This document shows, piece by piece, positions 6,201 to 6,761 of a stretch of DNA of 40,522 nucleotides; the stretch's first letter is position 1, and each line of letters begins with the position of its first letter. The position numbers were made by a program, and so were the translations under genes. This DNA comes from a virus (lineage: Duplodnaviria; Heunggongvirae; Uroviricota; Caudoviricetes): positions 1 through 40,522 of IMG/VR virus record IMGVR_UViG_2737471847_000003; one strand, 5' to 3'. Below the pieces are notes generated by a model. That model made no database searches and was not told where the DNA came from. It saw only the letters and a program-made list of their open reading frames with translations.

Positions 6201-6332
6201 TTTGAGGCTGTTTCGGGTATTCTGAATTGCGCCAGCCAGCTCTTTCGAACTGGCCTGTGCAGCACGGAATGGGCGGGTGAGTTTGTCAACCGCATTAAGA
6301 ATGACCTGCAGGCGCAGGTTATTATCACTCAT
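3255..6332 (-). CDS. T: Tail tape measure protein
   Basis: 1025 aa, Ala/Gly-rich helical protein with hydrophobic central block, directly downstream of E/E'. Confidence 0.85.
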   Translation of the reverse strand: MSDNNLRLQVILNAVDKLTRPFRAAQASSKELAGAIQNTRNSLKELNKQAGRIDEFRKTRSQLAITANNLNAAREEAAKLATQFAATNRPTAAQAKLFSQAKTRVQELQQTYNGLLGAVQRQRQALKESGIDTRQLSSAQRELKKNAEETRQALEGQQRALKRLGEQQARMNAAREQYSRRLEVRDRIAGAGATTTAAGLAMGAPVMAAVKSYTSMEDAMKGVAKQVNGLRDDNGNRTARFYEMQDAIKAASEQLPMENGAVDFAALVEGGARMNVANPDDSWEDQKRDLLAFASTAAKAATAFELPADELSESLGKIAQLYKIPTRNIEQLGDALNYLDDNAMSKGADIIDVMQRLGGVADRLDYRKAAALGSTFLTLGAAPEVAASAANAMVRELSIATMQSKSFFEGMNLLKLNPEVIEKQMTKDAMGTIQRVLEKVNALPQDKRLSAMTMLFGKEFGDDAAKLANNLPELQRQLKLTAGNDALGSMQKESDINKDSLSAQWLLVKTGAQNTFSSLGETLRQPLMDILYTVKSITGALRRWVEANPELTGTLMKVAAVVAAVTVGLGTLAVALAAVLGPLAVIRLGFSVLGIKTLPSVTAAVTRTSSALSWLAGAPLALLRRGLASSGNAAGLLTAPLSSLRRTASLTGNVLKTVAGAPVALLRSGLSGLRAVAVMFMNPLAVLRGGLVAAGTVLRVLASGPLAMLRVALYAVSGLLGALLSPIGLVVTALAGVALVVWKYWQPITAFLGGVVEGFKAAAGPISAAFEPLKPVFQWIGDKVQALWGWFTDLLTPVKSTSAELQSAAAMGRRFGEALAEGLNMVMHPLDSLKSGVSWLLEKLGIVSKEAAKAKLPESVTRQQPATVNADGKVMMPSGGFPSWGYGFAGMYDSGGYIPRGQFGIVGENGPEIVNGPANVTSRRNTAALAAVVAGMMGVAAAPAELPPLHPLALPAKGGEAIVSRAATVPLVQRIEAPTQIIIQTQPGQSAQDIAREVARQLDERERRLKAKARSNYSDQGGYDA

Positions 6333-6761
6333 CGTTGGCCCCGCTTCTCTGAATCGCTTTATACCGCCATTCCAGCACTTCGGTCAGCGGCATAACGTCA
6401 GTAACGGATGGCGGCCAGTGAAAGATGGTGGCGATATCAGCCACCAGATCGTCAACCGTCAGGCTGTCGGTAAACCGGCAAGCACCGACTTCTTCAACAA
6501 AAAAGTGACAACCTCAACCGACATGGCAGTGAGATCTGCCGGGTCCATCTCTGCGATTTCCTGTGCAGTCAGTGCCGGACTGGAGATGCGGGGGATCACG
6601 GTCATCATCGCGTTCACATCCATATCCATAATGGCCTGCAGGCGTGTGCCGCGCAGCGCACCGGACTGCGGTTTACGCAGCACAATTTCGGTAATTTCTG
6701 TTTTACCGCGCATGATGGGAGTATCCAGTTTAATAGTCTTTTCAGTCTGCTTATCGCTCAT
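6325..6761 (-). CDS. Frameshift product E+E' (-1 slip at TTTTTTG), predicted about 144 aa
   Basis: Heptamer T-TTT-TTG at 6498-6504 on the minus strand; manual translation of the -1 frame gives VEEVGACRFTDSLTVDDLVADIATIFHWPPSVTDVMPLTEVLEWRYKAIQRSGANDE and stops at 6325-6327, overlapping the T start codon. Confidence 0.7.
6459..6761 (-). CDS. E: Tail assembly chaperone E
   Basis: 100 aa ORF between FII and T; ends ...VVTFLLKKSVLAGLPTA. Confidence 0.8.
   Translation of the reverse strand: MSDKQTEKTIKLDTPIMRGKTEITEIVLRKPQSGALRGTRLQAIMDMDVNAMMTVIPRISSPALTAQEIAEMDPADLTAMSVEVVTFLLKKSVLAGLPTA
6498..6504 (-). other. Slippery heptamer for programmed -1 ribosomal frameshift
   Basis: TTTTTTG in codons ACT-TTT-TTG near the 3' end of E, the same heptamer as the P2 E/E' shift site. 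Confidence 0.7.

Follow-up and report, generated by a model that had tools for sequence, protein, structure and literature searches.

In bacteriophage lambda, which is a siphovirus, the slippery heptamer is G GGA AAG and the −1 shift takes place at a frequency of about 3–4%. The gpG/gpGT system is said to have been described by Levin, Hendrix and Casjens in 1993 and by Xu, Hendrix and Duda in 2004, 2013 and 2014; the 2004 study reportedly found the tail-chaperone frameshift to be near-universal in long-tailed phages. For phage P2, the E/E+E' frameshift was reportedly demonstrated experimentally by Christie, Temple, Bartlett and Goodwin (J Bacteriol, 2002). The P2 slip is said to be about 10% in that work, and E' is said to be essential for tail assembly.

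The roles of the two products have been described in lambda, where the short form, or shared domain, binds the tape measure protein and the extension binds the tube subunit (Atkins et al. 2016, PMC5009743; PMC3091744). The ratio of the products matters, and neither protein is found in the virion (PMC5009743, PMC3091744). The P2 and lambda chaperones have no amino-acid sequence similarity to each other (PMC3931495).

We analyzed a window of 40,522 nt, which is the whole of IMG/VR record IMGVR_UViG_2737471847_000003 (Caudoviricetes). The locus studied here is very probably the E/E+E' tail assembly chaperone cassette of a P2-like (Peduoviridae) E. coli prophage, expressed via programmed −1 ribosomal frameshifting. 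The phage belongs to an Elveevirus/Felsduovirus-like genus and not to Peduovirus. The frameshift is already known and is ordinary biology; here it is met in a common E. coli prophage. The genes are all on the minus strand, in the order sheath (7341–8513), tube (6816–7331), E (6459–6761), T (3255–6332), U (2773–3258) and D (1676–2776). This is the order of the FI-FII-E-T-U-D operon of P2, and the features of the cassette are listed in Table 1.

Table 1. Features of the E/E+E' cassette and its neighbours in the window (positions in the window).
Feature	Position	Strand	Details
Gene FII, tail tube protein	6816..7331	minus	Directly upstream of E; PF04985 9e-60, TIGR01611
AGGA, ribosome-binding site for E	6769..6772	minus	7 nt 5' of E ATG; read from sequence
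Gene E, zero-frame tail assembly chaperone	6459..6761	minus	ATG 6761, TGA 6461..6459, 100 aa; ORF list and translation
E+E' fusion coding region	6325..6761	minus	145 aa: residues 1–88 in E frame, 89–145 in −1 frame
SD-like GAGGTT (family consensus GAGGTG)	6510..6515	minus	5 nt 5' of heptamer; candidate frameshift stimulator
Slippery heptamer T TTT TTG	6498..6504	minus	X XXY YYZ phase with E; P-site TTT, A-site TTG
E', −1 frame extension	6325..6498	minus	57 sense codons from G6498, then TGA 6327..6325
Dual-coded overlap	6459..6497	minus	Last 12 E codons and stop; frame 0 reads LKKSVLAGLPTA and then the stop, frame −1 reads VEEVGACRFTDSL
In-frame GTG within E'	6442..6444	minus	RefSeq/GenBank start of separate 39-aa 'GpE family phage tail protein'
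Gene T, tail tape measure protein	3255..6332	minus	1025 aa; TIGR01760 1e-93, PF10145

The earlier note had placed a TTTTTTG heptamer at 6498–6504, near the end of E. This is borne out on the minus strand, where the heptamer stands in the X XXY YYZ phase: the computed phase puts its first T at the third position of an ACT codon, so that E is read T TTT TTG (Phe-Leu). Translation of the −1 frame likewise agrees with the 57 codons and the stop at 6325–6327 that had been read by hand. The fusion frame exists as claimed, although its length is 145 aa (88 + 57) and not the approximately 144 aa first given. Its end overlaps the start of the tape measure gene, as had also been noted, by 8 nt over the T ATG at 6332..6330 (ATGAGTGA); an overlap of 8 nt is the commonest class of E'/T overlap, occurring in 39 of 80 species' loci. 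From the sequence, the expected junction of E+E' is VEVVTFL/VEEVGACR, and the tryptic peptide across it would be ISSPALTAQEIAEMDPADLTAMSVEVVTFLVEEVGACR. Among relatives, the zero-frame tails past the slip site differ both in length (2–22 aa) and in sequence, while the −1 reading is conserved.

The closest experimental reference is P2, whose slip site aligns with the present one and carries T TTT TTG in the same codon phase. In the P2 RefSeq record NC_001895 the CDS of E+E' is joined across a −1 shift at this homologous heptamer, and our junction model, when applied to P2, yields products of 91 aa and 142 aa, as published (PMC3091744, PMC3931495). In both phages the −1 extension has 57 codons, PF10109 is followed by PF06528, the cassette lies between FII and T, E' runs into the start of T (ATGAGTAA in P2, ATGAGTGA here), and there is no downstream stimulatory structure. 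The two fusions are 48% identical, with 142 aa in P2 and 145 aa here. E has 100 aa here compared with 91 aa in P2 because its zero-frame tail past the slip site is 12 codons long and not 6. The motif upstream of the heptamer also differs, being AAGGTG in P2 and GAGGTT in this phage.

Nearer relatives resemble the locus almost completely. Escherichia phage Cartapus (Elveevirus), Klebsiella phage 4LV2017 and the Salmonella phage SEN8/Fels-2 group are 98.3%, 97.2% and about 87% identical to it over the cassette, respectively. All of them have the identical heptamer and overlap, with essentially no functional difference, and in their records E' is a separate 39-aa CDS that is not joined to E.

The relation to lambda G/GT is one of mechanism and gene position. 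The logic is common to both: two products with a shared N terminus, infrequent −1 slippage shortly before the gene ends, and a place between the major tail gene and the tape measure gene. By position and geometry the cassette falls in the lambda G/GT-type class of tail chaperone frameshifts (class description in PMC3091744 and PMC5009743). In contrast to lambda, this is a contractile-tail phage, in which the tube must also be sheathed.

We examined the domain content of the two reading frames separately. E matched Pfam PF10109 (Phage_TAC_7; E = 9e-19, 67.8 bits, cut-off 25) over profile positions 1–78 of 79, and it matched PHROG 103 'tail protein' at 6e-44. The −1 extension alone matched Pfam PF06528 (Phage_P2_GpE; E = 4e-19, 68.2 bits, cut-off 23) over the full 37-position profile, and PHROG 1756 at 2e-22. 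A Pfam scan of the fusion with E-values up to 0.01 returned nothing besides PF10109 and PF06528, no NCBIfam model matched E or E', and no solved structure for either was detectable by sequence.

The arrangement is widely conserved among phages and prophages. When the fusion was searched by tblastn, 385 of 419 phage records matched it in two pieces that covered at least 80% of it. All 18 diverged phages, which reach down to about 40% identity and whose hosts include Burkholderia, Ralstonia, Pseudomonas, Vibrio and Mannheimia, had E' in the −1 frame and an X XXY YYZ heptamer in phase; in 13 of them the heptamer was exactly TTTTTTG. A survey of species genomes, scanned with a 6-sequence alignment, gave the same picture, since in 79 of 80 prophages of different bacterial species the E' homology fell in the −1 frame and T TTT TTG or T TTT TTA stood in phase. 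These two counts (79/80 species' genomes and 18/18 diverged phages) support the conserved tail-chaperone arrangement that the earlier note had proposed.

Codon choice at the heptamer was then compared among 77 distinct E genes. The Phe codon was TTT in 77/77 genes, and the Leu codon was TTG or TTA in 77/77, never CTN. The codon before TTT always ended in T, across eight different codons and whatever amino acid was encoded. Synonymous sites are frozen exactly at the heptamer, which shows selection on slipperiness itself. All the sequence-level features of the P2 E/E+E' cassette have homologous counterparts here. On sequence evidence, the reading as a programmed −1 frameshift is supported by the P2 heptamer and its phase, the Pfam domains in two frames, the gene order, the overlap with T, and the conservation of synonymous sites.

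It could be argued that E' is a separate small gene, translated from GTG 6444 into the 39-aa 'GpE family phage tail protein' without any frameshift. A 120-nt CDS is annotated at this place by PGAP and in several phage records, RefSeq and most GenBank records follow, and 14 of the 19 loci compared (the window and 18 diverged relatives) have a GTG or ATG there. However, none of the 19 loci has an SD-like sequence 5' of the GTG, and the predicted duplex never goes beyond −3.3 kcal/mol, the background median. In the window, GTG 6444 is the only in-frame start of E', and its anti-SD duplex of −3.0 kcal/mol is at background level. Five of the 19 loci (Arsenophonus, RsoM1USA, Kp4861-1, VHML and Mh535AP1) have no ATG, GTG or TTG at all from the slip site to the conserved ADIA motif. 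In addition, the stretch between the heptamer and the GTG is already conserved in its −1 reading (VEEVGACRFTDSLTVDDL here, VAELGAVTFPKNLSVDDL in P2), and a separate gene would leave the synonymous freezing of the slippery codons unexplained. In its passage on P2 E', PMC3931495 (citing Christie 2002) reports that E' has no ribosome-binding site and is made as an extension of E. Thus, a separate E' gene is very unlikely, and the start at GTG 6444 probably reflects annotation practice rather than true initiation.

Transcriptional slippage could also give the same fusion. RNA polymerase would add an extra U in the T6 run, a subset of the mRNAs would then encode E+E' in a single frame, and one extra U puts the downstream codons into the frame that a −1 slip of the ribosome would also reach. 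In bacteria, transcriptional slippage is usually efficient only on runs of about 8–9 or more. The T run is homopolymeric, T6 here and T7 in some relatives, and Smp131 has T7G (PMC3931495). Some relatives, however, carry CCCTTTC, AAATTTT or GGGAAAG at the homologous place, and these are workable only by tandem tRNA slippage. The run always keeps its codon phase and the A-site codon is limited to TTG/TTA (TTC in some diverged phages), neither of which slippage of the polymerase needs, and the P2 literature calls the event translational (PMC3091744, PMC3931495). We therefore give transcriptional slippage hardly any probability.

The geometry of the site carries little weight in this argument. TTTTTTG occurs 28 times in the window compared with 14.9 expected, but this excess is driven by AT-rich segments, and the rarity of the heptamer was rejected as evidence. 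Of the X XXY YYZ heptamers that lie within ORFs of the window, about 13% are followed by 57 or more open codons in the −1 frame, and five sites in the window satisfy loose geometric criteria. The geometry-only screen also flagged 3267–3273, 21739–21745, 34797–34803 and 34839–34845, where, judging from the coordinates, the −1 run seems simply to follow the normal frame of a long ORF or of the next gene (U at 3267–3273). The heptamer and the geometry by themselves are not beyond chance. E/E' is far beyond chance because of the PF06528 match (4e-19), the pattern of substitutions in the −1 frame, and the conservation in 79/80 prophages and 18/18 diverged phages.

The substitution test used 60 distinct close relatives, which were viral contigs all at least 97% identical. 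Downstream of the E stop, the synonymous and nonsynonymous substitutions numbered 16/11 in the −1 frame, compared with 7/23 and 4/25 in the other two frames. The substitutions and the codon choice show purifying selection both in the −1 frame and at the slippery codons. A chance −1 ORF in a decayed prophage, from which nothing functional is made, would suit the weak geometry (13%) and the commonness of TTTTTTG, but it is effectively refuted by the homology and selection tests: the extension alone has its Pfam match, the −1 frame is under purifying selection and conserved over about 100 loci, the neighbouring late genes are intact with full-length family matches, 81% of window positions 1300–26000 is matched by Klebsiella phage genome records at 95.9% identity, and the 701 bp around the site (6200–6900) are present in 1002 of 5426 complete E. 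coli genomes (about 18%).

Under programmed ribosomal frameshifting, the preferred reading, homology suggests that ribosomes would start at ATG 6761 and that most of them would stop at 6459 to give the 100-aa E. A minority would slip back by one base, with tRNA-Phe on UUU in the P site and tRNA-Leu on UUG in the A site re-pairing on U UUU UUG. These ribosomes would read the −1 frame to 6325 and produce the 145-aa E+E', in which the N-terminal 88 residues are followed by a 57-residue GpE domain. The lambda gpG/gpGT system and P2 genetics suggest, by analogy, that the E domain common to both products may coat the tape measure protein T and that the E' domain, which only some of the molecules would carry, may recruit the tube protein FII. 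Recruitment of FII would allow the tail to polymerise to the length set by T, E and E+E' would be absent from the virion, and a fixed slip frequency would set the E : E+E' ratio. That the fusion is made here, how often ribosomes slip, and which proteins E and E+E' bind are inferred by homology and analogy.

The practical value of the result is in annotation. In RefSeq/PGAP and many phage records the cassette is split in two, with a 'phage tail assembly protein' and, apart from it, a 39-aa 'GpE family phage tail protein', and a 2025 survey of small proteins includes the latter among them (PMC12856327). A joined CDS corrects both the split records and the small-protein listing.

Some features of the site count against a programmed frameshift, namely the UUG heptamer as a poorer shifter, the lack of a conserved 3' structure, the weak GAGGTT, and the in-frame GTG. 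Heptamers with heterogeneous A-site codons (e.g., UUG) shift worse than those with UUU/UUC in E. coli reporters (Sharma 2014, PMC4066793).

We looked for structure downstream of the slip site. In the window, a hairpin (GUCGG...CCGAC) begins 8 nt 3' of the heptamer, with z = −1.65; 14 of 200 shuffled sequences folded equally well. The z-scores for the window and eight relatives ranged from −2.68 to +1.40, and the consensus fold of eight enterobacterial sequences had only −2.3 kcal/mol, with five weak pairs and no compensatory changes. On these results, a downstream hairpin or pseudoknot was rejected as a conserved element, and the absence of such a structure agrees with PMC3091744.

Upstream of the heptamer, by comparison, a short motif is constrained. 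Its Glu codon is GAG in 76 of the 77 distinct E genes, while elsewhere in E the count is GAA 300 : GAG 75 (80% GAA), and its second codon is GTG in 63 of 72. The version in the window, GAGGTT, is weaker than the family GAGGTG and has a predicted anti-SD duplex of −6.8 kcal/mol. Sharma 2014 (PMC4066793) accepted SD-like stimulators 6–17 nt upstream of the motif; the 5 nt between GAGGTG and the heptamer are at the lower edge of this range or just short of it. The E. coli dnaX and IS911/IS3 signals have an upstream SD-like stimulator, and here too an X XXY YYZ heptamer is preceded, at a distance of a few nucleotides, by a possible anti-SD element. The present site differs from them in that it has no downstream hairpin or pseudoknot and a short spacing of 5 nt, and the motif here is a candidate for that role.

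The codon pattern and the complementarity of GAGGTG to the 3' end of 16S rRNA make it possible, if somewhat doubtful, that this internal SD-like motif boosts the E/E' slip in the P2 family. No description of an SD-like element for P2-like phages was found in the literature searched, which did not include the primary P2 paper (Christie 2002), and the conserved upstream GAGGTG may be new. If it is real, the element would explain how a useful slip frequency is obtained from a comparatively poor heptamer without a 3' structure. If functional, GAGGTG would be a stimulator at a classic recoding site for which descriptions have so far given none.

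We located the cassette that the earlier note had read as a programmed −1 frameshift, and its features are collected in the table. The heptamer TTTTTTG lies near the end of E at 6498-6504, as claimed, in phase with E on the minus strand. Computed in the E frame, this phase puts UUU in the P site and UUG in the A site; the reading is ACT TTT TTG, in which the codon ACT gives the heptamer its first T (third base). Translation of the −1 frame also returned the 57 sense codons and the stop at 6325-6327. The end of E′, the −1 extension, does run over the tape measure start: the overlap with T is 8 nt (ATGAGTGA), because the T ATG is at 6332..6330 and the E′ TGA at 6327..6325. 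The fusion E+E′, put at ~144 aa, was recomputed as 145 aa (88 + 57).

Positions of the E/E+E′ cassette and of E′ as annotated free-standing
Feature	Position	Strand	Description
Gene E, zero-frame chaperone	ATG 6761 to TGA 6461..6459	minus	100 aa
Slippery heptamer TTTTTTG	6504..6498	minus	canonical X XXY YYZ phase, computed against the E frame
E′, −1 frame	from G6498 to TGA 6327..6325	minus	57 sense codons, VEEVGACRFTDSLTVDDLVADIATIFHWPPSVTDVMPLTEVLEWRYKAIQRSGANDE
Tape measure gene T	3255..6332, ATG 6332..6330	minus	1025 aa
SD-like GAGGTT	6515..6510	minus	the window's version of the GAGGTG motif
Free-standing E′ CDS as annotated, window	6325-6444	minus	internal GTG start
Free-standing E′ CDS as annotated, locus L101	3957-4076		internal GTG start
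Free-standing E′ CDS as annotated, locus L002	1957-2076		internal GTG start

Bacteriophage P2 is the reference case. Its site reads GGT TTT TTG, with heptamer and phase identical to those of the window, and its −1 frame also has 57 codons and ends over the T start. The abstract of Christie et al. 2002 reportedly puts the P2 slip frequency at about 10%, and E′ is said there to be essential in P2. The P2 RefSeq record (NC_001895) gives E+E′ as a two-piece CDS with the frameshift site marked and the note 'shares amino terminus with gpE; −1 frameshift; essential tail protein'. Secondary sources report that the shift at TTTTTTG yields E (91 aa) and E+E′ (142 aa), that P2 E′ has no ribosome-binding site, and that no downstream structure accompanies the frameshift site (PMC3091744; PMC3931495). 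Our junction model, run on P2, gave 91 and 142 aa, exactly the published sizes (PMC3091744); therefore, all coordinates in the earlier note were judged correct and its observation was confirmed. By every sequence-level criterion the window cassette belongs to the P2 E/E+E′ family, and this kind of frameshift is already known.

Neither the heptamer alone nor the geometry alone was beyond chance. TTTTTTG occurs 28 times in the window (14.9 ± 4.1 expected), the −1 frame stays open for 57 codons or more after 13% of the in-ORF X XXY YYZ heptamers in the window, and five window sites satisfy loose geometric criteria. Fifteen of the 28 copies fall between 21177 and 28957. Homology and selection, taken together, were decisive against chance. 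The 57-residue −1 peptide alone matched the whole profile of Pfam PF06528 'Phage P2 GpE' (E = 4e-19), E matched PF10109 'Phage_TAC_7' (9e-19), and PHROGs agreed with both assignments. Upstream of the heptamer, substitutions among 60 distinct sequences (87–100% identity) numbered 12, 8 and 43 at the three E-frame codon positions; downstream of the E stop, the synonymous/nonsynonymous counts were 16/11 in the −1 frame and 7/23 and 4/25 in the other two.

The fusion was then used as a tblastn query against 50,697 phage records. It matched 419, of which 385 covered at least 80% of it, split between two pieces in two frames. We found that the arrangement, described earlier as conserved among tail chaperone genes, held in both sets of relatives. 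In 18 diverged phages of Enterobacterales, Burkholderia, Ralstonia, Pseudomonas, Vibrio, Aliivibrio and Mannheimia, whose fusion identity falls as low as about 40%, E′ homology always fell in the frame −1 to that of E (18/18), and an in-phase X XXY YYZ heptamer lay within the E/E′ overlap in 18/18 (TTTTTTG in 13, TTTTTTC in 2, and CCCTTTC, AAATTTT and GGGAAAG in the remaining three). A scan of one genome per species gave 450 relatives; among the best 80 of these, E′ was in −1 in 79, the in-phase heptamer was T TTT TTG in 72 and T TTT TTA in 7, the −1 extension had 47–59 codons (median 57), and the commonest E′ overlap with the T start was 8 nt. The lone exception among these 80 was L150, from Candidatus Symbiopectobacterium sp. 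(NZ_PEHF01000066.1), in which E+E′ is one continuous frame. It reads ...IAIARFFDAEITAGDLPRSLTVDELMADIAVIFHW... at about 1130-1320. An indel immediately 5′ of TTTTTTG appears to have hard-wired the fusion and abolished separate E, and L150 may be a degraded prophage of a host-restricted symbiont.

Synonymous entropy was computed for 77 distinct E genes over the 35 codon columns in which the amino acid is conserved. The P-site Phe had the lowest value (TTT 77/77, TTC never), the Glu four codons upstream the second lowest (GAG 76/77), and the A-site Leu the third (TTG 71, TTA 6, CTN never), whereas CTG dominated the other Leu columns of E. The codon preceding the heptamer encodes T, N, S, I, Y, L or F, yet its third base is always T. 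Such freezing of the slippery codons would be expected of a functional X XXY YYZ site, and protein conservation alone, judged from these codon counts, cannot explain the pattern.

A conserved downstream RNA structure was not found in the window and eight relatives (z −2.68 to +1.40), and the consensus fold downstream of the heptamer was trivial and without covariation; this matches the P2 literature. Sharma et al. report from E. coli reporters that heterogeneous A-site codons such as UUG shift less well than UUU/UUC, and remark that genes with −1 frameshifting need not have high-efficiency motifs (PMC4066793). Complementarity to the 16S rRNA 3′ end was enriched in the 20 nt upstream of the heptamer: mean anti-SD pairing was −7.2 kcal/mol against a background of −3.0 in the diverged phages and −9.6 against −3.3 in the species set, where 86% of distinct contexts fell under the background 10th percentile. 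In both sets (L102-L181; L003 and L084-L100) the motif, GAGGTG, ends 5 nt short of the heptamer; the window has GAGGTT. Its Glu is GAG in 76/77, whereas Glu elsewhere in the same E genes is GAA 300 : GAG 75 (80% GAA) and GAA also prevails in the remaining conserved Glu columns; the motif's Val is GTG in 63/72, compared with 46% elsewhere, these counts being drawn from phylogenetically related sequences and the motif-heptamer spacing being short. GAGGTG may be an SD-like, anti-SD-pairing stimulator of the dnaX/IS911 kind. No description of it was found in the literature searched, outside which the primary P2 paper lies.

Annotation pipelines (RefSeq/PGAP and many GenBank phage records) instead treat E′ as a gene of its own, a 39-aa 'GpE family phage tail protein' that is not joined to E and starts independently (from GTG 6444 in the window); a 2025 survey includes a protein of this name among small proteins (PMC12856327). 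However, no SD-like sequence precedes the internal start in 19 loci (the window and 18 diverged relatives), in five of these relatives the stretch from the slip site to the conserved ADIA motif contains no start codon, and the −1 reading is kept beyond the internal GTG, upstream as far as the heptamer. The 39-aa annotation is probably an artefact of the frameshift. Transcriptional slippage at the T run is opposed by relatives whose heptamer is not homopolymeric and by the constraint on both codon phase and A-site codon. A chance ORF as the source of the −1 frame was ruled out by the homology and selection results. Programmed −1 frameshifting, as first proposed, is supported by two-frame homology, in-phase heptamers and synonymous constraint.

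The cassette and its flanking genes share the minus strand and are ordered sheath FI, tube FII, E/E′, tape measure T, U and D, which is the P2 FETUD operon order. The T frame contains an in-phase G GGG GGA at 3267-3273 (minus), five codons short of the T stop, where the −1 frame is that of gene U. The simple reading is ordinary translational coupling, since U starts at an ATG of its own (3258) that overlaps the T stop. The closest phage was Escherichia phage Cartapus (Elveevirus, Peduoviridae; 98.3% over the region). The 701-bp region around the site was found in 1002/5426 complete E. coli genomes, at 100% identity in strain HS4.

The P2-like prophage adjoins a tmRNA gene (ssrA, tag ANDENYALAA) at the left end of the window (40-402). 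Its integrase occupies 33579-34592. The presence of another, distinct tyrosine integrase (36836-38077) suggests tandem islands at ssrA. Between the two integrases, a protein of 585 aa that carries a cytidine/deoxycytidylate deaminase domain (34606-36363, minus) matches the PADLOC dCTP deaminase defence model (2e-146). Inside the prophage (23595-26616), a protein with a GHKL-ATPase domain matches PADLOC 'Type II restriction enzyme' (9e-91), and its gene is convergent with that of a C5 cytosine DNA methyltransferase; the pair looks like restriction-modification cargo. A serine recombinase (Resolvase + HTH_7; 8656-9228, minus) adjoins a segment of approximately 1.4 kb amid tail-fibre and tail-fibre-assembly ORFs, flanked by 89-nt inverted repeats (9278-9366 and 10795-10883, 78% complementary). 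The segment looks like a Mu G / P1 C-type invertible element for host range.

Based on P2 homology and the analogy with lambda gpG/gpGT (PMC5009743), E, both alone and within E+E′, would bind the tape measure protein, while the E′ domain would recruit the tube protein. The slip frequency would set the ratio of E to E+E′, and the final virion would contain neither.
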